A DNA stretch of 26,512 bases from a virus (IMGVR_UViG_2698536335_000001:1-26512), one strand, 5' to 3'. Shown: positions 1 to 26,512, numbered from the stretch's first letter. Numbers and translations are program-made. The notes: a model not told the origin generated them from the sequence alone.

Positions 1-52
1 AGCGGAGCAGGAAGGACATCTGATGGAAATGGAAGCCACGCAAGCACCTTAA
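1..52 (+). CDS. 3-prime end of an unidentified ORF that begins upstream of the window (last 16 codons, ...AEQEGHLMEMEATQAP)
   Basis: Frame open from the window edge to TAA at 50-52; ordinary GC content, unlike the AT-rich block that follows; too short to identify. Confidence 0.2.
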   Translation, partial: AEQEGHLMEMEATQAP

Positions 53-154: not shown

Positions 155-334
155 ATGAATAAAATGGTGAGTAATATTATCATTTCTTTTATTTTATTTG
201 TTACTATAGTGGTGTTATTGTTTTTTATTCTTGAGATAAAAGATTTAATTATCAATTACTATGTCTTTTTATTAATACCTGCATTATGCGTACTGGCTGC
301 ATTCAAGATTATTAAGGAAAGAGTAAATGTTTGA
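155..334 (+). CDS. small hydrophobic membrane peptide, 59 aa (MNKMVSNIIISFILFVTIVVLLFFILEIKDLIINYYVFLLIPALCVLAAFKIIKERVNV); absent from the ORF track
   Basis: ATG at 155 preceded by AAGAGG (143-148); two hydrophobic helices; TGA at 332-334 overlaps the ATG (327) of the next gene. Confidence 0.45.
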   Translation: MNKMVSNIIISFILFVTIVVLLFFILEIKDLIINYYVFLLIPALCVLAAFKIIKERVNV

Positions 335-1409
335 AACATATTTAACGTATAACACAATTCTTTTGTGTGGCGTATTAATATCATCAATCATTTGTTTTAT
401 TAATAGTGGTAAAGGCGTGGTTTACTTGCTATTATTTATGGCCCTTTTTATACCTGCCGCCATTCGGTACGGAGTTGGTTTAGATTTCTTTAATTATGTT
501 GATATTTTTAACAACCCAGAATATTACCAAGGCCAAATAGAAATAGGATTTTATTTAATTGTAAAGATTCTATCAACCACTGGATTTGGGTATCAAGCAT
601 TATTTGTATTATGCTCAGCGTTAACTGTAATCTTCTTTATGCTTTCAATAGAAAGAGATTCAGCATGGGCTTCTGTATTGATTTTCATATGCACTCTTTA
701 CCTGTCATCCTATTGTTTGTTAAGACAAGCTTTAGCGGTTAGTATTCTGATGTATAGTTGTAGACTATGGATTAATGATAAAAAATTAAATTCTATTATC
801 ATTATGCTGATTGCATGCTCAATGCATTACTCTGCCATACTTTTTGCTCCTTTATTGATAGCGTCCAGTGTATTCAGGCTTACTACGCTTCGTACATTAT
901 TTATAATGGGGTTTATTTCTATATTTGTTTTTGCGCTTCATGGTGTTGATTTGATATTTAATAATGAAATGTTTTTAAATTCAAAATATGGCTCATATGT
1001 TTCTTCTGGTTTCAATAAAGAAACTCAAATCGGAACCGGAGTTGGGGTTATAATACAAATATTAATTCCTGTATCCGTTGCTTTAATGGCGAATAGAATT
1101 TTAGAAATCAATAATAGATACAACATTGTGATATTCACAACGACTGCATTTTTTGCATCTTATCTACTTGCGACTCAAGTATATATATTTGGAAGAATGG
1201 CAGATGTTTTCTCTTTTTCTTTGGTTTTTGCTGCGCCTATTCTTCTTAGGTCAGCAAAAAGCAATATATCAAAGATAGTTTTTGTTGGTATGATTTGTCT
1301 TTACGTTCCTGTCATGCAGGCCACAATAGCAAATAATAACTTTAAAGCCAACGAACTTTCTGGTTCTGGGCTTGGGATATCTCCTTATAAAACTGTTTTT
1401 GATAAATAG
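327..1409 (+). CDS. polytopic membrane protein, EpsG/Wzy-like polysaccharide (O-antigen) polymerase candidate
   Basis: 360 aa with about ten hydrophobic segments; RYGVGLDFFNY resembles the EpsG-family R-x-x-G-x-D-x-x-x-Y signature (from memory); AT-rich codon usage; AAGGA RBS at 314-318. Confidence 0.65.
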   Translation: MFETYLTYNTILLCGVLISSIICFINSGKGVVYLLLFMALFIPAAIRYGVGLDFFNYVDIFNNPEYYQGQIEIGFYLIVKILSTTGFGYQALFVLCSALTVIFFMLSIERDSAWASVLIFICTLYLSSYCLLRQALAVSILMYSCRLWINDKKLNSIIIMLIACSMHYSAILFAPLLIASSVFRLTTLRTLFIMGFISIFVFALHGVDLIFNNEMFLNSKYGSYVSSGFNKETQIGTGVGVIIQILIPVSVALMANRILEINNRYNIVIFTTTAFFASYLLATQVYIFGRMADVFSFSLVFAAPILLRSAKSNISKIVFVGMICLYVPVMQATIANNNFKANELSGSGLGISPYKTVFDK

Positions 1410-1460: not shown

Positions 1461-3725
1461 TCAGATCCTCTGAGTACCAGCAAGAATGACATCAAAAGCA
1501 GCGTAGCTTAACGTTGCCGGGTTTATGACTGCCCCTGATGCATCCTTAACTTTTATAATCACTGAAGTACCCCCATCCAAGACGGCCATGTATGAGTGTA
1601 TTGTGTCAACTGTAGGGCTCGCTATTACGTGGGTTTTAGTATACCAGTTCTTCTTTATTGGTATCCTGATGCAAGGGACTGCTGTATCAATAACTGGTGT
1701 TCCAAACACACTACTTCCATATGATGTAGATAACACGCCTGCCGTGAAAGTGAAACTGCACAGATCCATTCCAACAGGATTTACTTGTGAAGAGTTGCTT
1801 CCATAAGCGCTTCCTGCACCGACAGATTTAAAGTTGGTTACAGCTTCAGGGTTTCTAAGTGTTAGAATGTGAGGAACGCTTGTAGTATCCTCTTCTCTTA
1901 GCATTGCTATAGCTGGCACAGCCGAATCATTCATTAATGCCATACCCTGCGCTTCTTCTCCATATACAACGCTCCAAAAATCAACTAATTCCCCAGTGTA
2001 TTTGAACACATATATACCGTTATCGGAAAGGAAGTGGATAAATCCACCGTGCGCAACCATACCTTGAGGATTTCCATCAAATGAAGCGACAGGATACTCA
2101 AAGGAACTAATTAGTTGCTTGGAATTAATATCAATAATTGAGAAAAATTCATTTGGTGAACCAACTTTCCCAGTTGCAAGAACAAGCAAATCATGCTCAT
2201 TATCGATGCTGATGGTTGCTCCCATGCCGTACTGAGTTAAATCCCATGTTTCTGTAATTGATTTTCCATCAGTAGCAAGGATGTAAACTTCAGCATCAAA
2301 TTCTGAACCACCAGAGCTTACATATACTCTACCATCTAATTTACGCCATGCAGCGGAACTTGCATGTTTTAAAGGCAGTGTAACCTGACCATATGAGTTA
2401 TCAACGCTACCGTCTCTTTCATATCTAAACACTTGTCCGTTAACACCACCAATATCATATCCAACTATGAATTTTCCAATGGAGAAATCATACGCTAATC
2501 CTTGTGGTCTTTTTTGAGTACCAGTTGTTGGGACGGAAGTGATAGTAAATTCATAAAATCTTCTAAAAACATCGTTATCACCAAACGCCCCCCCTCTTCC
2601 TGGTGCAAGAATGCTATTTGCTCTTGGGTTGCTGTAATTTCCAGCCATTATAACTTTAGCACCCGAAACAGAAGAAATACCGCTAGTTCCGTCTGGTACA
2701 TATATGACACCCGAGGCAAGCATTGTTGGACCAGAAAGCGTTAATGGAAGTGAATATTTTTTTGATGCTGACAGCGCAGATTCTATAGCGTGAGTATCAT
2801 CATCTATACCATTTCTTTTTGCTCCGAAAAACTCAGGAGCTACATCATTGCACTCTCTCTTCCATCTATTACCACCAGATGTAACTATTGTTACGCCGTC
2901 ATCATCAATAGTTGTTGAATCAGTATTGTCGTAATAAAAGTAACCACCTCCAGTACCAGATCCTAATGTATGCTCTAAAACAAATATTCTTTGCTGTGTA
3001 TTTGTTGGTTCTATATTGCGTAAATTAGAAATGGAAGCACAATTGCCAATAAGTTTTAAGCCATCACTTGCTGCTAGCTGAATCATTACATCGGATGCAG
3101 ATCCAGACTGTGGAAGGACCATAATAGGATTACCATTGTCATCCATCGCTACCACTTTGTTTTTACGATTCTCAGCATCAGGCAAACTTGGTATTGGCTC
3201 AGGCGTTCTAAGAGTACGACCTAGATTTGTATTAGCAAGTTTATCGACATAATTTTTAGTCGCTGCATCCTGAGGGCGCGAAGGATCACGCAGGTTTCTG
3301 ATGTAGTTGTTAATAGCGTCATAATAATTCGCCACAAAAGATGGCTTACGAAGAGCAAGTGAAAACCAACTTCTTACCTGCTGGATCAGCATCGTTAGCT
3401 TATCAAACGCGTCCTCGTGCACCTCAGCAAAAAACTTACCCTGGTTTCTAAGATCTGTTTCCTGAGTAACCGGTAGTTCTCGCAATATGGAAATCTGATA
3501 ACCATTAGCCAGTGCCTTCGACAGAATTACATTGCCACCGTTATACCCTCCCGCACCAGTGACTGTGTAATCAGTATCAAGATCCAGCACAGTGATATTC
3601 TCGTCAAGGTCAATCACCTGCACTACTAAATCAGATTTATTGAAAACCCTAAAGGTATAAGGGAATGATGTCGTAACGCCGTTACCGGTGTATTCGTTGT
3701 GGTTAACTTCGGTTGAGACCGTCAT
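1461..3725 (-). CDS. tailspike / tail fibre protein, 754 aa
   Basis: N-terminal ~150 aa resemble the T7 gp17-type tail-attachment domain (by recall); long Gly/Ser/Thr/Asn-rich C-terminal part typical of beta-helical receptor-binding domains; GGAGA RBS; last gene of the virion operon. Confidence 0.8.
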   Translation of the reverse strand: MTVSTEVNHNEYTGNGVTTSFPYTFRVFNKSDLVVQVIDLDENITVLDLDTDYTVTGAGGYNGGNVILSKALANGYQISILRELPVTQETDLRNQGKFFAEVHEDAFDKLTMLIQQVRSWFSLALRKPSFVANYYDAINNYIRNLRDPSRPQDAATKNYVDKLANTNLGRTLRTPEPIPSLPDAENRKNKVVAMDDNGNPIMVLPQSGSASDVMIQLAASDGLKLIGNCASISNLRNIEPTNTQQRIFVLEHTLGSGTGGGYFYYDNTDSTTIDDDGVTIVTSGGNRWKRECNDVAPEFFGAKRNGIDDDTHAIESALSASKKYSLPLTLSGPTMLASGVIYVPDGTSGISSVSGAKVIMAGNYSNPRANSILAPGRGGAFGDNDVFRRFYEFTITSVPTTGTQKRPQGLAYDFSIGKFIVGYDIGGVNGQVFRYERDGSVDNSYGQVTLPLKHASSAAWRKLDGRVYVSSGGSEFDAEVYILATDGKSITETWDLTQYGMGATISIDNEHDLLVLATGKVGSPNEFFSIIDINSKQLISSFEYPVASFDGNPQGMVAHGGFIHFLSDNGIYVFKYTGELVDFWSVVYGEEAQGMALMNDSAVPAIAMLREEDTTSVPHILTLRNPEAVTNFKSVGAGSAYGSNSSQVNPVGMDLCSFTFTAGVLSTSYGSSVFGTPVIDTAVPCIRIPIKKNWYTKTHVIASPTVDTIHSYMAVLDGGTSVIIKVKDASGAVINPATLSYAAFDVILAGTQRI

Positions 3726-3778
3726 GTTAAATCTCCAGATAGTCGCAGCACCCGTTGCGCCGCATATCCGATTATTCT

Positions 3779-3845
3779 ATTACCTGAAAAACCATATATG
3801 GATAGGTAGACCATGAATACAAACAGATATTACCTTTCAGGTAAT
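3779..3845. promoter_or_regulatory. pair of inverted 11-mers ATTACCTGAAA (3779-3789) and TTTCAGGTAAT (3835-3845); the second is part of the 17-bp palindrome ATTACCTTTCAGGTAAT (3829-3845)
   Basis: Read directly in the intergenic region upstream of the tailspike gene; the same 17-mer recurs at 20444-20460. Confidence 0.35.
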
Positions 3846-3881
3846 TTGCAAAACGTGCTGGATAGCAAACAAATTATTTGA

Positions 3882-3901
3882 TACTGTATAAATATACAGT
3901 T
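3882..3901 (+). promoter_or_regulatory. LexA (SOS) box TACTGTATAAATATACAGTT
   Basis: CTGT (3884-3887), 8-nt AT-rich spacer, ACAG (3896-3899); 18 of 20 positions match the E. coli consensus TACTGTATATATATACAGTA; 20 bp upstream of the ATG at 3921. Confidence 0.7.
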
Positions 3902-3920
3902 ATTGCATGGAGAAGATAAG

Positions 3921-4178
3921 ATGCAGCAGTATCACTATCCACTGGAAGACGGATTTACCGAAAGGATTCACACGCCGGGAGGCGTCAGGTCACTGGTGGA
4001 GGGATCGCACTTGATGAAATTACTCCGGGATCTCGATAAGGATGGATTTAATGTCGATGGCCCACTTGCCGAACTGACTGCACTGATTAACTACGTCACC
4101 AGCTCACAGATGTCTATGCAGGATCTGCAAACACATCTCGACTATTGTGCCAAACAATTACGAAAACAAATCACATAA
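3921..4178 (+). CDS. SOS-regulated hypothetical protein, 85 aa, acidic (MQQYHYPLEDGFTERIHTPGG...)
   Basis: ATG at 3921 with GGAGA RBS (3909-3913); the track start at 3903 is a TTG extension; LexA box immediately upstream; convergent with the virion operon. Confidence 0.6.
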   Translation: MQQYHYPLEDGFTERIHTPGGVRSLVEGSHLMKLLRDLDKDGFNVDGPLAELTALINYVTSSQMSMQDLQTHLDYCAKQLRKQIT

Positions 4179-4200
4179 AGAAAAGGCCGCGAAAGCGGCC
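4171..4200 (-). terminator. rho-independent terminator ending the minus-strand ejection-protein transcript
   Basis: ggccgc-gaaa-gcggcc hairpin (4185-4200) followed on the minus strand by TTTTCTTTAT (4171-4184). Confidence 0.55.
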
Positions 4201-4220
4201 TGTGACATGTCACGCTCACG

Positions 4221-4361
4221 TTATGACAAGCCTATGTACCCTGCTACACCAGATAATATCAAAATAACTGCAACAGCAAATTCGCCATCGTCAATGATAC
4301 ATTTACGGTTCATAACGCCAAGTGCAACAAGCGCAAACACAACAAGAATAAAAGCAATCAT
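4221..4361 (-). CDS. small hydrophobic protein, 46 aa (MIAFILVVFALVALGVMNRKCIIDDGEFAVAVILILSGVAGYIGLS); absent from the ORF track
   Basis: ATG at 4361 preceded by AAGGA, directly after the TAA of the upstream gene; two hydrophobic segments; followed 20 nt later by the terminator at 4171-4200. Confidence 0.35.
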   Translation of the reverse strand: MIAFILVVFALVALGVMNRKCIIDDGEFAVAVILILSGVAGYIGLS

Positions 4362-4370
4362 TTCTCATCC

Positions 4371-6845
4371 TTATTGCGGAGTGACATCCTGTGGTCGCCA
4401 CCAGTATGTCTGGTTAAACTCTTTCTTCGAACGTTGCTCCATTTTATGCAAATAACCTGGTGAAAAATACTCCTGCATCTGGTTAAAGATCATGTGATCG
4501 AGAGCCGCCTTTAAGTACCAGAGATTCGCACCTGGCATCAGACCTTTCCCCAGCTTAACCAGATCACCACCAGTCTGCTCATTCTTCCCTTCCACAGCAT
4601 TTAACGGTATACCCTGAGCAATCTTCACTACGTCATCAACCAGACCAGCTACCGGGCCAAGCATCGACGCCAGCGCGCCGCTTCCGTACCTAGTGTGATC
4701 TGACAATAAAAAGTCACCGTAAAGGCCAAGACCACCACCTTTCAGTAGAGCACCAAGCCAAAATTTAGCAGCATCTTCTCCTGTCATCTCGCGAGGATTA
4801 CGACCAGACGCAAGGTCGTTAAGTTGCTGCGACAAAGCGCCAAGAATGGTCGTACTGGCAATAAACGTCGCAATATATGCCGCACGCCCACCAGCAGACG
4901 GCATACCCATAGCGCGTGACCAGTGACGCATAACAACCGAGATAGGGAACGATTTAAACAGGAAAACACTTCTCGTTAATTCACCTTTCCATGTTCCACG
5001 CTGAATACCAGAACCGGTTATCAGTTGCTCACGTGCTCCCGGTGTAATAACAGCCATATCAATTTCTTCAGTTACGGCACCGAGCAGTTTACGCATTGCC
5101 TCAAATTTCACGCGTTCAGGTTCACCAAGATGTTTAACTGCTGAATCAGGGATACGCATAATGCTTTCCGGTGTCAGCATCGTATTATTACCGTTCCCCC
5201 AGTCCTCCTGTTGCGCCAGCTTCCATACGCTCCAGTCTGTGTCAGTAATCCCTTTGCTTTTCAGGATACGAAAATCAGAGTCATCGAGGCTACGAAGGTC
5301 TGGTGTCCGTGACACTACTTCTCCCAGGCTTCCCATCATGGTTACGCCATAGGCGCGCTTGTGCGCATCTGACCATGCTGTAAGCCCACTGGCACGCATT
5401 ACCGCCGTTGCCGCCCAACGAGACACTGACGGCCCCATATTATCCATCGCCCATCGGTTAACGCTGCCAAGTAGAGATTCCATCGCCAGACCAGCGCGGC
5501 GCGCCCGCGCAAGTTCTGTACGGTTCGTTGGGTCCATAGCTTCAAGCTGGTTGCGGAATAACTGGTTCATTGGAAGGTTGGTAACCTTCGCAGACAGATA
5601 CATGGTTCCAAGATCAGAGAACGATGACAGCAACGCGGATCCGAGTCTGCTGGCAACCAGCCAGTTGCGGATATTGTCAGACCATCGCGCGATGTGCGGA
5701 TTCGCTACAGGCTGTGTCTTTCCGGAAATAAAGTTGTACAGATTCTCTGTGTTGTTCGCCAGCCGCTCGACTTTACCGGTTTTACTCGGGTTAGCTGTTG
5801 CCGTTTCTGCCTTCACCTGATCAAGAAGAGAGCGGAAAACATGATCGGGGTTTGGGCCATATGTTTCCACCAGTGCAATATCTTTACTGATACCTTCCAG
5901 GTGACCGACCATGATTTCCCATAGAGAGCGATCGCCATAAAGTTGCTGATATTGCAGATAGGAATCTGCATCTTTGAAATGTATCTGTCGTGATGCATTA
6001 CCACGGTTAGCACGTGCGCCGGAAATTCGCATTCCGGTATCAGTAAGCTTATTCAGCCCACCAGTAGCGATCGTGTTATAAGCCTCTCCAAGAAATGCAG
6101 ACAACTCAGCATCGTTCATCAGTTGTCCATCGGCTCGGGTATAATATTTGCGATCCAGCTTACCTATAACATCGCTAACCCACTTATCCTTTGATACCGC
6201 CCCAACCTTTTCCATAGAATGATGTTGAGGGATCCCCCAGTTTTCGAGATAGCCAATGTCCCCACCAGCATCATTAAACCGGCGGCGCAGTAGCTCTGTC
6301 ACTTCTCTCCACGCCTTAGCACCTTTTCTTGCTTTAGCATTGCCCGTATTTTGCCCTCGCATTTCATATACCAGGTCACGCACGCCAGCTTCATCTTCAA
6401 ACAGGCCAAAAAAGCGAGGATCAACTGCTTCAAATGCCTCCTGCAATTGACTCAATGCATAATCACGAGTGGCTTTTGTTCTGGACTCAACAGAGAGGAA
6501 ATTCGATTTACCGTCTGCATTAAAAGCAATAGTACGGTTAAGAGCGCCAAGTTTCCCATCAGCCCCTTGATAGCTATTGATAAATTTATCCAATCTCTGA
6601 CGTGCGGCTATAGTGAGGGCCACACGACGTTTCTTTAATGCCGCTTCTCGCTGTAATTCTTCAGATGCCAATTGTGCTGCACGATATAGCCGCTCTGATT
6701 CGGAAAGTTGTCTCCACGACATCGGGTCATCACGAGCAATGGAGCGCATATTTCGATAAATGCGGTCTTCAATGTTCTGTATTTCTCGCGCCGTTAACGT
6801 GCGCTGCGCCGCCTGCTGGACCGCTTGTATACATTCCTGTCTCAT
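4371..6845 (-). CDS. internal virion / ejection protein (T7 gp16-position), 824 aa
   Basis: Large protein in the position between tail tubular genes and tail fibre, as in T7-like gene order; RBS present. Confidence 0.75.
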   Translation of the reverse strand: MRQECIQAVQQAAQRTLTAREIQNIEDRIYRNMRSIARDDPMSWRQLSESERLYRAAQLASEELQREAALKKRRVALTIAARQRLDKFINSYQGADGKLGALNRTIAFNADGKSNFLSVESRTKATRDYALSQLQEAFEAVDPRFFGLFEDEAGVRDLVYEMRGQNTGNAKARKGAKAWREVTELLRRRFNDAGGDIGYLENWGIPQHHSMEKVGAVSKDKWVSDVIGKLDRKYYTRADGQLMNDAELSAFLGEAYNTIATGGLNKLTDTGMRISGARANRGNASRQIHFKDADSYLQYQQLYGDRSLWEIMVGHLEGISKDIALVETYGPNPDHVFRSLLDQVKAETATANPSKTGKVERLANNTENLYNFISGKTQPVANPHIARWSDNIRNWLVASRLGSALLSSFSDLGTMYLSAKVTNLPMNQLFRNQLEAMDPTNRTELARARRAGLAMESLLGSVNRWAMDNMGPSVSRWAATAVMRASGLTAWSDAHKRAYGVTMMGSLGEVVSRTPDLRSLDDSDFRILKSKGITDTDWSVWKLAQQEDWGNGNNTMLTPESIMRIPDSAVKHLGEPERVKFEAMRKLLGAVTEEIDMAVITPGAREQLITGSGIQRGTWKGELTRSVFLFKSFPISVVMRHWSRAMGMPSAGGRAAYIATFIASTTILGALSQQLNDLASGRNPREMTGEDAAKFWLGALLKGGGLGLYGDFLLSDHTRYGSGALASMLGPVAGLVDDVVKIAQGIPLNAVEGKNEQTGGDLVKLGKGLMPGANLWYLKAALDHMIFNQMQEYFSPGYLHKMEQRSKKEFNQTYWWRPQDVTPQ

Positions 6846-11175: not shown

Positions 11176-11715
11176 TTATCGACCGGTTGGAGTGCCAACA
11201 GCAGCAGAAATCGGCGCAGCCTTCTGAGAGAACGGGCTCCACGTTCCGCCGCCCATCTGGTATGCACCGTATGCTTTTAGTGGTGCCGTTAACAAAGTGC
11301 TGGTCATCGATGATTTAGCAGCCGACTGAGCAGCAGCCCCCTGTGCCTGAGCATTCATTCCCTGAACCTGATACCCATATGCCTCACGCTGAGCATTATT
11401 CACTGTCGTTAACGCATCAAGAGTGCCGAACTGAGCATTATCCGCAAAAACGTCAAGAGCTGTTCCGCTACTTAATTCCGCACCGGTAGCCCCCATAGTG
11501 GCCGCCGCAGTGCCTGAGCGTTGACGCATTTCACGACGACGCTGATCCGCTTCAATATTCCCACGATTGATTGAATCCTGTGCCTGAGCTTCAGCAATTT
11601 CAGCATTCCGATCAGCTATGGCTGACTGGTATTTTGCCTGCTTGCTCTGGCTGTACATTGACGCGGCTGTGGATGCCACTGTGACGGCAACCAAAGCGAT
11701 GGCTGGGTTACACAT
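11176..11715 (-). CDS. internal virion protein with N-terminal transmembrane helix (T7 gp14-position), 179 aa
   Basis: N-terminal hydrophobic segment AIALVAVTVASTAASMY; Ala/Gln-rich; GGAGAG RBS. Confidence 0.7.
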   Translation of the reverse strand: MCNPAIALVAVTVASTAASMYSQSKQAKYQSAIADRNAEIAEAQAQDSINRGNIEADQRRREMRQRSGTAAATMGATGAELSSGTALDVFADNAQFGTLDALTTVNNAQREAYGYQVQGMNAQAQGAAAQSAAKSSMTSTLLTAPLKAYGAYQMGGGTWSPFSQKAAPISAAVGTPTGR

Positions 11716-12179
11716 TATTTTCTCTCCATGTGAAATCTGTGGAAATTAAGACCAAGAGCACCATAAGGCGCGGCTTCTTCAAGCCTGAATCCAAGCCAGT
11801 GCAGCCATGCTTTGGCAACATGGTTTCGCTCGTCGACGTAGTTTTCCAGGCGCGGATAAACTGCCAGCATCTGCTGCAATACAGGGCGGCAGTGGCGAAG
11901 AAATGTCTTCTGATATTTTTCAATACGGCTGGTTCCTACCAGCCAGGGTGTACCATTGCCACCGATCATTGACGCCGGAGATACACCAAACATGGTTACC
12001 AGTTCTCCGTTCGCGAACCCTGACCAAGCCATAGTAGCAGTGCGAAGACCAACACGCAGCGCATCTTCGGTAGTCATCAGCGATACCGCATACAGTTCGT
12101 CAATATCAGCCTGACGAACATCCGGCAAAATCATCTGAAGATGCTCTTCGGTAGCGGGAATAATTTGAACGTCGATCAT
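11715..12179 (-). CDS. hypothetical virion-associated protein (T7 gp13-position), 154 aa
   Basis: ATG overlaps the upstream TGA (TGATG), indicating coupled translation within the operon. Confidence 0.7.
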   Translation of the reverse strand: MIDVQIIPATEEHLQMILPDVRQADIDELYAVSLMTTEDALRVGLRTATMAWSGFANGELVTMFGVSPASMIGGNGTPWLVGTSRIEKYQKTFLRHCRPVLQQMLAVYPRLENYVDERNHVAKAWLHWLGFRLEEAAPYGALGLNFHRFHMERK

Positions 12180-13495
12180 CAGAATCCCCCAACAGTAAGG
12201 CGAGGAATAACGGCAAGAACAGACAGCGGCAACGGGTCAAGCTGACGGATTTTTACACGTCCGTTTTTGCCCCAGTTACTGTCCAGTTTCACTTCTACTT
12301 TTCCGGTAGCATCATCAACAGGATCATCGTAGAACTCGAATTCACGCTGTGGATATTCGTACCATTTACCGCCAGGCGTAGTCGCCCAGATGCCGCGGCT
12401 GGCATTAACAACCAGAGTAACGGAGGGGATCACCTGTTTTTTGTCCAGCAGCGTTTCCTGTCCGTTAATGTTGATATCCAGTGTTTCGAATTCAGCAGTT
12501 ATTGGCAGGCCGATGTGCACTACAGCCCCCGGAGATTCCAGTGTGACGGCACCTCCGGAAACAACTTTCTGTGGCTCAACATTCGCATCAGAAAGAATGT
12601 TTACGGTCTGTCCTTCAAGATGAGACAGGCCTCCAAATGTCCGGCGCGCCATCTGCCAGTTCGTGGTGGCCGTATTCCTGAGGGATGGCGGGACGTTCCT
12701 GTTGGCACGAACCACTACAGCGGTATTGCTGGTTACAGAAATAATGTCGCAACGTAATTCTTTTGACACTTCATCGCCAGTATCAGGATCAGTTCCGGCA
12801 TAAGGGAACTGTAGTTGCGCGCCGACATCACTACTGGTGAAGTACGCACCACCAGAAACACTGATTGTATATTCCGCGCGATAATCCCATTCACCAGAAC
12901 CACCAGTGATGATCATCGTTCTGTCAGACGTATTTCTTCCATCATAGCTAAGGCCAGAATCAACAAAGAAAGCATCTTCATCGCTGGTAAATAAACGGCT
13001 GGACAGCCGCTCGATGTATCTCACTGTTTGCCCGTTAACGGTTCGGTTAACGACGAAATACACCGCATCTTCATTGCCTTCGCTGATACTGCATGTGCTT
13101 TCATATTTTCCGGTACTGGATTGTGGTGCCCATGCAAAAACCTGCTGATCACGCAAATAGGTCATCACCAGTAATTTACCGTCATCACGAATGCAGAAGG
13201 CGCTGGAGTAAGGGACAATAGAGAAGCACCAGTCAACAATGCTGTGCTTCTGAAAAAGATGATTGGCAAGGATGGTCAGGTCGTTCCCCTGATAGCCGTC
13301 AACATCGAATGAGTAGGCCAGATCACGGACAACACTGCCTTTCTCCTGGACGAACAGAGCAATATTCGCCACGGCAATTGGTGGGACATTGCTCGAGCCA
13401 TTTGATCCCTGAGAGCTGAATGCAAATGATGATGGGGTTAATACTTTGTTCTGGTCGCCGGTGATGACGTACTCACCTCCAGAAGTCAGCGCCAC
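12179..13495 (-). CDS. tail tubular protein B-like (nozzle), C-terminal portion; GTG start or frameshifted continuation of 13486-14649
   Basis: No ATG for the first ~110 codons, no clear RBS, begins 10 nt before the stop of the upstream ORF in another frame; position as T7 gp12. Confidence 0.65.
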   Translation of the reverse strand: MALTSGGEYVITGDQNKVLTPSSFAFSSQGSNGSSNVPPIAVANIALFVQEKGSVVRDLAYSFDVDGYQGNDLTILANHLFQKHSIVDWCFSIVPYSSAFCIRDDGKLLVMTYLRDQQVFAWAPQSSTGKYESTCSISEGNEDAVYFVVNRTVNGQTVRYIERLSSRLFTSDEDAFFVDSGLSYDGRNTSDRTMIITGGSGEWDYRAEYTISVSGGAYFTSSDVGAQLQFPYAGTDPDTGDEVSKELRCDIISVTSNTAVVVRANRNVPPSLRNTATTNWQMARRTFGGLSHLEGQTVNILSDANVEPQKVVSGGAVTLESPGAVVHIGLPITAEFETLDININGQETLLDKKQVIPSVTLVVNASRGIWATTPGGKWYEYPQREFEFYDDPVDDATGKVEVKLDSNWGKNGRVKIRQLDPLPLSVLAVIPRLTVGGF

Positions 13496-14649
13496 CAGCG
13501 AACCAACATCATCAGGTGGCGGATCTCATTAACCTGACGCCCGGCATAGGTGTAGATAATTCTGTCGTCATCCTGCGTAGGATTGCTTTTGCCAAAATCC
13601 TTATAATCCCCAGTACGGCTGGCCCAGATAGTCTGAGGGAACGCAGTCGATGCGGCGAAGTAAAGACGTTGTTGATAATAAACAACAGTGCCAGGATAAC
13701 CGTTAATACTGTTCCAGGCATATTTAGCCCATTTATAGCTGGCATTATCCTCGCCAACTACCTGCGAAGGGATATAGGAAATCACCTCGGCAGTTGCAGT
13801 AGTTCCATTTGCAGCAGAGATACGGGCAATGCCAAAACCACTGTGCAGATATTCCCACTCAATGCCAGTATCATCATCACCGGATCCGCCCCAGCCATCC
13901 CATGATGTGCCTTCTGTATGCGAAGGGCGCAAAGTACCTGTTTTGCCTGCTGTAACGGCGCGATAGTAGTTACTGTCTGCACGGCGAATATCGCCAATCG
14001 ACGTACTCTTACTGGTTTCCCATACCGGCACTGAATCCACTGCAGGCTGTTCCAGATAGAACAATTTGCCTACCTGCTCCGCGCCAAAAATAGAGGCGCT
14101 TGCCGTTAACGTAATTGTCCCGGTGCTGGCGCTGGCATAAACCGTCACTGACTCGTCAATATTGATATCTTCAAATGGCCCGTTCTTCGTTACCACATCA
14201 ACCAGTTGCCAGTTGTCATGCGCATAGCGGCGCAACTCTTTCGGCGGGTATGCCGGGTGAACCAGCGTAAGCACGTCGGCGCTTTGCGTGAATTTAATTC
14301 GGAACAGATCGGCTTCAGTATATGGCGTGGCAATTTCATAAATAACATTGCTGCTGTTCAGCACCAACGCACCATCTTTGATAACGCGCATGTACTGGTG
14401 TCCGAACTCCAGAGCATAAGTCTGAACCGTCGAGAACTGGAACGGGATCAGACGGCATTTCCGATTTGGGTATTTGGCGGCACCGACAAAACGCGTACCA
14501 GGTCGATTCTCAACGCCGCCATACTGCCGCACGATAAAGTTATCGCACTTGCGCAAAGCCACCTGGTACTTCGCCATGTCGATACGACCGTACAACGACG
14601 GTCCAATCTCACCACCGGCAAAGCTGGGCTGGATCCAACTGATAGCCAT
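13486..14649 (-). CDS. tail tubular protein B-like (nozzle), N-terminal portion
   Basis: ATG overlaps the stop of the gp11-like gene (ATGA); combined length with 12179-13495 is about 825 aa, close to T7 gp12. Confidence 0.65.
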   Translation of the reverse strand: MAISWIQPSFAGGEIGPSLYGRIDMAKYQVALRKCDNFIVRQYGGVENRPGTRFVGAAKYPNRKCRLIPFQFSTVQTYALEFGHQYMRVIKDGALVLNSSNVIYEIATPYTEADLFRIKFTQSADVLTLVHPAYPPKELRRYAHDNWQLVDVVTKNGPFEDINIDESVTVYASASTGTITLTASASIFGAEQVGKLFYLEQPAVDSVPVWETSKSTSIGDIRRADSNYYRAVTAGKTGTLRPSHTEGTSWDGWGGSGDDDTGIEWEYLHSGFGIARISAANGTTATAEVISYIPSQVVGEDNASYKWAKYAWNSINGYPGTVVYYQQRLYFAASTAFPQTIWASRTGDYKDFGKSNPTQDDDRIIYTYAGRQVNEIRHLMMLVRWWR

Positions 14650-15254
14650 CAGGACAACCTCGCAATGGTAAACTCGTCAACCGGTGGCTGTGGTTCCTGT
14701 GATTCATTCTGGCTATGCGAGCCAGCACTAAGAATCACGCGATTGTACATATTGAGGGCAAACGTACCGAGGTCTGCATTCCCAGTCAGCGCCATGTTAA
14801 TAGCTGCCGCAAGACGCCAGGCCAACGCCTCCATAAAAATGGCATCAAACATGTTCACATCTGTAACGCGAGAGACATACTTGAGCCATGCCTGAGGCTG
14901 GTCTGTGTAGATCAACTTTCCTGTTCCGTTGGTGTCTACACCTACTTCGTACTGAACGCGCATTGCTGCTGTTGGATTGCGTACACCAGGAAGCATAATT
15001 TCAGTAATGCGCAGACAATCGGACGGGTACTGATACGCATATTCCCAGTCAGGCGGTGGATTGCTAGTATCTGCAAGCGCCACGCGTTTGGTAGCAAAGT
15101 TCCAGTCAAAATCAGAAAGCACAGCATCACGGCAGGCCTCAAAGTGCAGCGAACATTCCCCCGCTTCCTTGCTGGCTTCCGTCAGGCTGTTAATGCTGCG
15201 GCTGTTGCCAATATTGGACAGCGCACAATTGCAGATCTCTACTACAGAGGCCAT
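14649..15254 (-). CDS. tail tubular protein A-like (adaptor/gatekeeper, T7 gp11-position), 201 aa
   Basis: Size and position after the head genes; N- and C-terminal regions resemble T7 gp11 as far as I recall it. Confidence 0.6.
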   Translation of the reverse strand: MASVVEICNCALSNIGNSRSINSLTEASKEAGECSLHFEACRDAVLSDFDWNFATKRVALADTSNPPPDWEYAYQYPSDCLRITEIMLPGVRNPTAAMRVQYEVGVDTNGTGKLIYTDQPQAWLKYVSRVTDVNMFDAIFMEALAWRLAAAINMALTGNADLGTFALNMYNRVILSAGSHSQNESQEPQPPVDEFTIARLS

Positions 15255-20782: not shown

Positions 20783-20859
20783 GTGGCATTAGCTCAGTTG
20801 GACAGAGCAACCGCCTTCTAAGCGGTTGGTCGCAGGTTCGAATCCTGCATGCCACGCCA
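20783..20859 (+). tRNA. tRNA-Arg, anticodon TCT (reads AGA), 77 nt with encoded CCA
   Basis: Hand-folded cloverleaf: acceptor GTGGCAT/ATGCCAC, D arm GCTC/GAGC, anticodon stem ACCGC/GCGGT with loop CTTCTAA, T arm GCAGG-TTCGAAT-CCTGC; similar to but distinct from E. coli argU as I recall it. Confidence 0.9.
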
Positions 20860-24351: not shown

Positions 24352-25085
24352 CACTTCACCTCCTGCGGCGGTTCCGGTAGCGGCATCCAGTGAGTTGCTT
24401 GCTCAATACCATTACCCGGCTTAATCGTTGCATCTCCGCGCCGAAAGGTGCTTCCGGTATAGCGTGCGGAGCATATTAGCGGTTCAACCAGAGAGCTATC
24501 GAAATTCACCGAAATAAGCACGTTCTGGCCCTTTTCAGGCATTCGATCACTACAGCTTATCCAACTATCCGGAGTTCCCGGAGAGTTGCCATTTACATCG
24601 AAGTTTGGCTCTGCGTCCTGAACCAAGAGGATGTAACCATTCTTGGCTGTATCAAGTTCTAACGCTTCGGTGACGGTGCCGAAATAGCGATTACCTAAAT
24701 CAGCATCACAAGTGCTTATATCAATGGAAACTTCCATGCCTTCGATTAATTCTGGCAAGTTGTAAGTTTGGCTTACAGGTTGGCTACCCTGAAGCATGGC
24801 GGCGCGGTGACACCAGATAATCCAGCCAAGCGCCATATCCCATGCCATGTATTCTCTATCGCCATTTTTTGCCCTACGGCGATCTACAGATTCCCCGAAA
24901 CGCTTCTCCATAAATAATTCATAGGCTGCTCGTTCATCCGATACTGCTGCCAGTGATGCCAGTGCAATTTTTAATGCGGTAAGCATGTTGTTTTGATCTT
25001 CATCGAGTCCGAACGGTATTTCATCCCGTGCTGACTCAATGCTGGTAATCGTGTTCTGTAACCATTCTTTGGTAAGAGTATTCAT
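24351..25085 (-). CDS. nin-region-type protein with DUF551-like C-terminus (…HWMPLPEPPQEVK), 244 aa
   Basis: C-terminal W-x-P-L-P-E-P-P motif recalled from DUF551 proteins of lambdoid phages; N-terminal ~15 aa shared with gene 25281-25748. Confidence 0.65.
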   Translation of the reverse strand: MNTLTKEWLQNTITSIESARDEIPFGLDEDQNNMLTALKIALASLAAVSDERAAYELFMEKRFGESVDRRRAKNGDREYMAWDMALGWIIWCHRAAMLQGSQPVSQTYNLPELIEGMEVSIDISTCDADLGNRYFGTVTEALELDTAKNGYILLVQDAEPNFDVNGNSPGTPDSWISCSDRMPEKGQNVLISVNFDSSLVEPLICSARYTGSTFRRGDATIKPGNGIEQATHWMPLPEPPQEVK

Positions 25086-25087
25086 AA

Positions 25088-25279
25088 CTATTTCACCTTA
25101 ATCTCAACATTTCGCAGCTTTAGCTCTACTGGCAAGTCTGACTTTCCTGTTAATGCTAATGCGAGATTTTCAGGAGTAATGAGAGCTGTTATTGTTTTCC
25201 CCATCGCCAGACGAATAATCATTCGTATCTCGCGATCGTCACATGCTCCCGGTCGAACAATTGATATTTGTCCGTTCAT
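25088..25279 (-). CDS. hypothetical protein, 63 aa
   Basis: ATG at 25279 with AAAGGAGAG RBS, one nt after the upstream stop; track start 25300 is a TTG extension. Confidence 0.5.
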   Translation of the reverse strand: MNGQISIVRPGACDDREIRMIIRLAMGKTITALITPENLALALTGKSDLPVELKLRNVEIKVK

Positions 25280-25280
25280 C

Positions 25281-25748
25281 TCACTCTCCTTTGATGCCAA
25301 TGTTTACAGCCTGACAAGCCTCTTTGAGCACCCAGTCAACAGCGTCTTTCCATGCTCCGGTTTCGACTGGCGGATTTTCACTCTTAACCTGTTCATAGAA
25401 GCGCACCGCTTTAATCAATCCTTCGGGTGTCAGTGGCACAGGCTGGGCCGTGAATAACGCCTGAATTTCATAGTTCGGCCTGTCGTTGCAATTCTCTTTT
25501 GTCGGTACATATTTCCAGTCACCAACCCACGGCTTCTCCTGAAAGTTCGTAACGCCTTTTCTCACGTAGCGATATCGCCATGTCACCGGTTCGGCTTCCA
25601 GCGATACCAGCGCGACTTTAAATGCGGTAAGTACGTTTTTAACCACATCGATTTTAAATACTATTTCATCACATACAAACGATTTATCGTCTACTACCGT
25701 TTCAATTCCGGTAATCGTGTTTTGTAGCCATTTGGTTAATTCAGCCAT
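25281..25748 (-). CDS. hypothetical protein, paralogous N-terminus to 24351-25085, 155 aa
   Basis: MAELTKWLQNTITGIE versus MNTLTKEWLQNTITSIE at the N-termini; C-terminal parts differ. Confidence 0.65.
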   Translation of the reverse strand: MAELTKWLQNTITGIETVVDDKSFVCDEIVFKIDVVKNVLTAFKVALVSLEAEPVTWRYRYVRKGVTNFQEKPWVGDWKYVPTKENCNDRPNYEIQALFTAQPVPLTPEGLIKAVRFYEQVKSENPPVETGAWKDAVDWVLKEACQAVNIGIKGE

Positions 25749-25894
25749 TTTTCATTACCGCCCTTTCGGGCGGTCTCCTGATGTTCTGAGGGTGCAGGAA
25801 TCCCTCCGGTTAAGGATTAAATTTTATTTACAGAACTGAATTTAATTATTCAGATATACGTATCTGTAACCTTACGAACCTACTCACTGGATGC
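25749..25894. promoter_or_regulatory. AT-rich intergenic region with inverted repeats: CTGAAT-N6-ATTCAG (25836-25853) and hairpin ccgccc-tttc-gggcgg (25758-25773)
   Basis: Read directly; lies between the methyltransferase stop and the start of the next minus-strand gene. Confidence 0.3.
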
Positions 25895-26368
25895 CTATTT
25901 CATAAAAATAATCCAGTGGGTTTTATCGTTTTTTCCTGTTCGTTGACCGATAACAGGTTTTCTGTCGGTCAGTACCAATATCTGGCGAACAGGTATTTGC
26001 GTTTCATTCCATTTAAAAATCAGAACTCCGGATGGACGCAACACACGAAAGGCTTCTTTAAATCCCTGCCGCAAATCATCACGCCAGGTATCTTTATTCA
26101 GCCGTCCATATTTCTTTCCCATCCAGGCGTTATCACCAACACGCTCAAGATGCGGAGGGTCGAATATAACCATCGAAAAAGATGCGTCTGCAAATGGTAG
26201 TGCACGAAAATCAGCTATCAGATCAGGACTGATAATCAGGCGTCGTCCATCACACAATGTGTGCTCTTCCTTTCTGATATCGCTAAATATCGCCCGGTCG
26301 TCATTCTTATCGAACCAGAACATGCGACTGCCACAGCACATGTCGAGGATTGCTGCATGTCCAGTCAC
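25895..26368 (-). CDS. small phage-type DNA methyltransferase (Dam-like N6-adenine class), ~157 aa
   Basis: Motif I-like ILDMCCGS followed by the catalytic-type VIFDPPH (DPPY-like) motif; GTG start at 26368 with AAAGGAGG RBS; the track ATG at 26401 has no RBS. Confidence 0.65.
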   Translation of the reverse strand: MTGHAAILDMCCGSRMFWFDKNDDRAIFSDIRKEEHTLCDGRRLIISPDLIADFRALPFADASFSMVIFDPPHLERVGDNAWMGKKYGRLNKDTWRDDLRQGFKEAFRVLRPSGVLIFKWNETQIPVRQILVLTDRKPVIGQRTGKNDKTHWIIFMK

Positions 26369-26512
26369 TGGCTGCCTCCTTTGCGAAGCCGTTCCGCCCA
26401 TTCTTCAAGGGATTTCTCTGCATATTCACCGGACAGGCCATCAATCGGATGCGATTCATTAGCTAACTCTTCTTTTGCTGACAGAATCATGCGTGTAACG
26501 TCGAAAACTTCA
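26365..26512 (-). CDS. 3-prime end of a hypothetical ORF continuing beyond the window (…ELANESHPIDGLSGEYAEKSLEEWAERLRKGGSQ)
   Basis: Open frame from the window edge to TGA at 26365-26367, overlapping the methyltransferase GTG start. Confidence 0.4.
   Translation of the reverse strand, partial: EVFDVTRMILSAKEELANESHPIDGLSGEYAEKSLEEWAERLRKGGSQ

Follow-up and report, generated by a model that had tools for sequence, protein, structure and literature searches.

The tail nozzle (tubular tail B) gene in the 26,512-nt stretch of DNA analysed here (the window) is a broken copy of a member of its family and not a functional member: it lacks a single T as compared with all relatives, and this one-base deletion is, judged from the sequence, an ordinary inactivating mutation (less likely a sequencing error) and not a recoding signal. 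We regard it as most probable that the nozzle gene carries a real and recent mutation. The first-pass annotation had left three options for the two overlapping ORFs found here, i.e. a frameshift mutation or sequencing error, a recoding event, or a genuine two-gene arrangement; the first of these stands, as a 1-nt deletion against all relatives, whereas the other two fall.

Identity and neighbourhood of the nozzle gene

The window covers the structural module of a phiV10/epsilon15-like podovirus prophage (genus Uetakevirus) on a draft contig of E. coli, the markers of which are listed in Table 1. All genes in the nozzle part are on the minus strand, and the split gene lies 3' of the gene for the tubular tail A/adaptor protein and 5' of the genes for internal virion (ejection) proteins, i.e. 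in the synteny of a nozzle gene; further downstream a phrog_992/transglycosylase-like protein of 837 aa is encoded. The epsilon15 homologue of the adaptor, gp11, is annotated in its record as 'HHpred T7 tail tubular protein A'.

Megablast with the nozzle gene gave DNA identities of 97-98% to the Escherichia phages phiv142-3, TL-2011b, and phiV10 and of 77% to Salmonella phage epsilon15, and the query was covered to 100% by phiV10, phiv142-3, TL-2011b, and others, each relative spanning 2472 nt. The records of phiV10 and phiv142-3 each list a single CDS of 823 aa for this gene, and that of epsilon15 a single CDS of 825 aa (gp12). Both ORFs of the window represent the two halves of one profile, phrog_376 'tail protein' (Table 1). 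Moreover, the intact 823-aa E. coli homologue (P0017) aligns via its residues 2-822 with residues 9-828 of the 830-aa chain 8CK1_A, a 'Tail Nozzle' (E = 4e-216), and the alignment runs straight across the junction without interruption; a single chain thus extends over the junction, as shown by the match to the solved nozzle along its full length. The tail tubular B-like identity proposed in the first-pass annotation is borne out by this match and by the orthologue epsilon15 gp12, which is the tubular tail B (nozzle) homologue of its phage group in Table 2 of Hardies et al. (PMC4819975). As neither of the halves, nor the repaired protein, was assigned to a family by Pfam or NCBIfam, the identity rests on PHROGs, the PDB, and phage records.

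T7 gp12 (tail tubular protein B, the nozzle) has the same position in the gene order and belongs to the same size class as the nozzle of the window, and no T7 gp12 chain was matched by the nozzle protein in a phmmer search of PDB sequences (E <= 10). The epsilon15 and T7 groups have been linked by PSI-BLAST and HHpred via the central domain, T7 gp12 residues 354-556 (PMC4819975), and the remote relationship of the nozzle to T7 gp12 is taken from that study and not re-derived from the window.

Among the intact counterparts, phiV10 PhiV10p15 (YP_512269.1, 823 aa) resembles the window gene in position with 97.5% DNA identity, and WP_032277057.1, encoded by the prophage of E. coli 12089, is an orthologue in the same position within a module that is 99.92% identical over 24.4 kb. 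Both genes have 2472 nt in one frame, whereas in the window gene one T is missing at codon 380, which splits the gene. Epsilon15 gp12 (AAO06075.1/NP_848220) is an orthologue, 77% identical in DNA and equal in synteny, that has kept ATT GAT GTT GGT at the junction, but, unlike the window gene, it is a single gene of 825 codons, with a 6-nt insertion elsewhere in the gene. Likewise, PDB 8CK1 chain A is a full-length homologue in which the junction motif is conserved, yet, in contrast to the window, it is a single uninterrupted chain.

Two further PHROG families overlap the nozzle: phrog_20269 (374 positions, 'unknown function') covers its N-terminal part, and phrog_15566 (552 positions) extends from about residue 272 to the end. 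Split or truncated nozzle gene calls may have been the seed of these separate families.

Table 1. Split nozzle gene, its parts and its neighbours, in window coordinates
Feature	Position	Strand	Description and basis
Tail nozzle (tubular tail B) gene as a whole, disrupted	12179..14649	minus	2471 nt vs 2472 nt in intact relatives
Upstream ORF	13486-14649	minus	387 aa; ATG start; TGA at 13488-13486
Downstream ORF	12179-13495	minus	438 aa; GTG start at 13495-13493
Deletion site	13511..13512	minus	relatives A-T-T-G (ATT GAT = Ile-Asp), window A-T-G; MAFFT and BLAST
Native N-terminal part, codons 1-379 (ends ...RQVNEIRHL)	13513..14649	minus	translation vs P0017; phrog_376 positions 2-359 of 712
Out-of-frame tail of upstream ORF	13486..13512	minus	8 aberrant codons (MMLVRWWR) and TGA; translation vs intact IDVGSLVA
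Native C-terminal part, codons 381-823, -1 frame	12179..13510	minus	translation; phrog_376 positions 359-712 of 712
Upstream neighbour, tail tubular A/adaptor homologue (epsilon15 gp11, phiV10 p14), intact	14649..15254	minus	phrog_394 'tail protein'; length as in E. coli 12089
Downstream neighbours, homologues of epsilon15 gp13 and gp14 (internal virion proteins), both intact	11176..12179	minus	phrog_308, phrog_418; PF24072 T7_gp14
Module markers			portal PF12236; major capsid PF20911; capsid cement protein Bbp16; T7_gp14-like internal virion protein PF24072

The two ORFs and the missing base

The window does not encode the nozzle as one polypeptide of ~800 aa, but as 387 and 438 aa in two frames, adding up to 825 aa as compared to 823 aa in the intact gene. 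As read from the window sequence, the two ORFs overlap by 10 nt and the downstream ORF is one base back relative to the upstream ORF (-1 for the ribosome), with GTG and TGA located within 10 nt of each other (GTGGCGCTGA). In the translated downstream ORF the GTG precedes the first Met by 110 codons, and the 30 nt 5' of the GTG (GATCCGCCACCTGATGATGTTGGTTCGCTG) contain none of the Shine-Dalgarno motifs GGAG, GAGG, and AGGA. All this agrees with the first-pass annotation, i.e. the coordinates, the overlap, the phase, both the stop and the start codon, the lack of a ribosome-binding site and of an ATG for ~110 codons, and a total of about 825 aa, the size of a single nozzle protein, were all confirmed.

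The downstream frame is open from 13525 only, with an in-frame TGA at 13528-13526, and the frame change is thus confined to the 37 nt from 13525 to 13489. Within this interval relatives read CAC CTG ATT GAT GTT GGT, whereas the window reads CAC CTG ATG ATG TTG GT, i.e. one T of a TT doublet is gone at codon 380 of 823, the remaining T being window base 13511. An alignment of the window gene with those of phiV10, phiv142-3, and epsilon15 (MAFFT) contains exactly one window-private gap column, and a BLAST comparison with the E. coli 12089 prophage (99.92% identity) puts the gap at window 13511. The lesion at 13511/13512 falls within the interval 13486-13530 that had been flagged earlier.

Translation from 13525 gives DPPPD|DVGSLVALTSGGEYVITGDQ... 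and is the same as in the intact relatives from DVGSL on. Native coding picks up again at GAT (13510) in the -1 frame, where 443 native codons are found, and the GTG, i.e. Val386 of the intact protein, comes first among the start-type codons of this frame. In the alignment to the solved chain the junction sits in a strongly conserved protein motif, the best conserved one, which reads RQVNEIRHLIDVGSLVALTSG in the query and RQVNEIRHLIPLGSLLALTSG in 8CK1_A. Since the outgroups, epsilon15 and the 8CK1 protein, keep a continuous frame, the state of the window is derived. The gene thus shows the sequence pattern of a frameshifted pseudogene, namely a derived 1-nt deletion, here relative to phiV10, phiv142-3, epsilon15, and E. 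coli 12089, and a premature stop.

Distribution of the deleted allele and alternative readings

The deletion is private to this isolate. A 50-mer centred on the deletion and built in such a way that megablast seeds only across the junction had no match in 5426 complete E. coli genomes, whereas the T-restored 51-mer, which served as positive control, was found in 474 records from 471 complete E. coli genomes; the nozzle gene as such is carried by 521 of the 5426 genomes (~10%). The deleted junction had no exact-pattern match in IMG/VR or in the GTDB species representatives either. Among the best 80 IMG/VR loci all 80 encode the intact junction peptide NEIRHLIDVGSLVALTSG, and 78 contain the full 823-codon ORF, the other two having a nonsense mutation elsewhere. 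Only two assemblies contain the exact 387-aa product, i.e. an NCBI contig of 26512 nt (CTT09587.1), equal in length to the window, and the Logan assembly of run ERR134513.

Programmed -1 frameshifts are known from phage tail genes, e.g. lambda G/GT, where a conserved slippery heptamer is present and the two-frame layout is kept across relatives. The window resembles lambda G/GT in that tail ORFs overlap with the second one in the -1 frame, but the heptamer and the conserved layout are absent. Programmed -1 ribosomal frameshifting or transcriptional slippage could in principle join both ORFs into one nozzle, as the shift needed is indeed -1 and the halves sum to the right size; nevertheless, we give this reading virtually no credence. 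The final 60 nt of the upstream ORF, read in every phase, contain no slippery heptamer of the type X XXY YYZ, in line with the first-pass annotation, which had seen none in the overlap, and the permitted 37 nt contain neither such a heptamer nor a homopolymer run. The RNA downstream (106 nt) folds no better than shuffled sequences, with a minimum free energy of -26.4 kcal/mol vs a shuffle mean of -25.9 (z = -0.14). Moreover, the gene is in one frame in every relative, with 474 intact vs 0 deleted E. coli records and an intact junction in 80/80 of the best IMG/VR loci, which argues against a selected recoding signal. Recoding was thus rejected, there being no heptamer, no structure, and no conservation of the two-frame layout.

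The split nozzle might also work as two polypeptides, the 387-aa N-terminal one and a C-terminal one for which ribosomes would terminate at the TGA and reinitiate at the overlapping GTG. The geometry, i.e. GTG and TGA within 10 nt, is able to support translational coupling, and a functional split of tubular tail B has been documented once, for gp44 and gp40 of Pseudoalteromonas phage phiRIO-1 (PMC4819975). However, the break lies inside the most conserved motif of the nozzle, Ile380-Leu385 are lost and 8 foreign residues are gained, no Shine-Dalgarno motif precedes the GTG, and the layout is seen in no relative read at the DNA level, so that we consider a functional two-piece nozzle highly improbable. 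Although the nozzle of phiRIO-1 consists of two polypeptides, similar to the layout of the window, its halves are separate genes with a gene module between them, both products were seen in virions, and the authors found splits to be uncommon in their family alignments (PMC4819975). In the window, in contrast, we find a private 1-nt deletion in a conserved motif and a second half without translation signals, whereas in a natural split each half would have a start codon and a ribosome-binding site and relatives would share the layout. If the two-piece nozzle were real, tubular tail B would have been split a second time, independently of phiRIO-1, and the window would show this split as it arose.

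The first-pass annotation had suggested aligning both ORFs to intact homologues and had named homologues consisting of two separate genes with the same GTG overlap as the observation that would speak against a split single gene. In the alignment one protein spans the junction in phiV10, phiv142-3, epsilon15, and 8CK1_A, and no homologue with two such genes was found, as every one read at the DNA level is a single gene across the junction. A genuine two-gene arrangement was rejected on this ground.

The remaining alternative is a sequencing or consensus error, i.e. the gene of the isolate is intact and the T was lost in the reads or in the assembly. The deleted allele is recorded from one sample only and absent everywhere else we searched, and the rest of the prophage is undamaged, which would also be the picture if the sequence of an intact prophage contained an error. 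Among complete genomes, that of E. coli strain 12089 (CP159875) is the nearest; over 24.4 kb its prophage differs from the window by 17 substitutions (99.92% identity), and the nozzle deletion is the one indel inside this stretch, another gap being located at the edge where homology ends. Between the EpsG and the small terminase genes, both included, every other ORF is as long as its annotated counterpart in E. coli 12089. Both observations imply that the assembly is not prone to indel errors; a noisy assembly was rejected in view of the one internal indel in 24.4 kb. Moreover, the Logan contig of ERR134513 is 100% identical to the window over the 7164 nt compared, including the deletion, which is thus not a quirk of one assembler and should be present in the reads; both sources are assemblies, and the deposited contig may derive from the same run. 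A systematic read-level error would hit both assemblies if ERR134513 underlies the deposited one. Nevertheless, the identical sequence in two different assemblies, the location of the deletion in a TT doublet and not in a long homopolymer, and the lack of any other indel relative to such a close relative render an error unlikely.

Expected consequences for the prophage and further features of the window

In our preferred reading, the nozzle gene of a phiV10/epsilon15-like prophage has lost a T from CTG ATT GAT at codon 380 of 823 by a real mutation. In the window sequence, translation from the normal ATG yields 379 native residues followed by 8 wrong ones and terminates at the TGA, whereas the remaining 443 native codons are left in the -1 frame without a ribosome-binding site of their own. 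No full-length nozzle would be made, the tail would not be completed below the adaptor, and induced particles would be non-infectious. We infer this expected loss of infectivity from what the nozzle does in the tails of T7-like and epsilon15-like phages, as known in general and as described in PMC4819975.

When the ORFs are compared with those of the nearest prophage, no shared structural gene other than the nozzle gene is broken. As all other structural genes are intact, the lesion would be recent, and the deletion would be a first or early step of prophage decay. For the annotation this means that the 'phage protein' entries CTT09587.1 and CTT09552.1 are the halves of one nozzle gene, best labelled as a single frameshifted pseudogene. 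If the lesion is real, an otherwise intact phiV10-like prophage would be unable to build its tail, which bears on phage induction from this strain and on tallies of 'intact' prophages. No new mechanism is involved.

The protein databases hold a few other broken nozzle alleles, each disrupted at a different site, in keeping with a common prophage that is eroded by ordinary mutations. In two of them (P0011 and P0012) one A of an AAAA run is lost at GGC AAA AGC, about codon 354, and a 46-mer representing this A4-to-A3 allele was without match in the complete genomes. The frame is shifted after ...AASTAF in P0014 and after ...AFSSQ in P0015, and the two IMG/VR loci with nonsense mutations (L075 and L084, gene at 3001-5472 in each) carry W250* (TGG to TGA) and Q296* (CAG to TAG), respectively.

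A further record, P0018 (ESE15522.1, E. coli 908675; 88 contigs, the longest 5.07 Mb), is a protein of 438 aa with the same GTG start and a slightly different sequence. It corresponds to window 12179-13495 (-) and equals the C-terminal 438 aa of the intact gene in IMG/VR locus L047. With a 331-nt query on this L047 background no indel was found in the top 60 complete genomes, and P0018 may reflect either an upstream lesion or a mere gene-calling choice.

At its left end (window 1-39) the contig begins within the end of an IS1 copy. In E. coli 12089 the CDS of an IS1 transposase ends at the equivalent of window 39, between the lysis cassette and the EpsG gene, and the contig was probably broken at the IS1 repeat. 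The following gene at 327-1409 (+) encodes an EpsG-family membrane protein (PF14897, E = 5.6e-47) and is convergent with a gene for a 754-aa protein at 1461-3725 (-), located where a tailspike would be expected. Epsilon15 and phiV10 carry genes that modify the O-antigen, and, by analogy, the region of the EpsG-family gene may be a serotype-conversion module.

Homology to the prophage of E. coli 12089 ends at 24402, and window 24403-26512 contains only short patches of 93-94% identity, located in genes for DUF551 and ead/Ea22-like proteins; judged from this pattern, the early region has a mosaic boundary at 24402/24403. Between the portal and the terminase regions a gene for tRNA-Arg (anticodon TCT, reading the rare AGA codon) is located at 20783-20859 (+), i.e. 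on the strand opposite to the structural genes, and it is also annotated in E. coli 12089.
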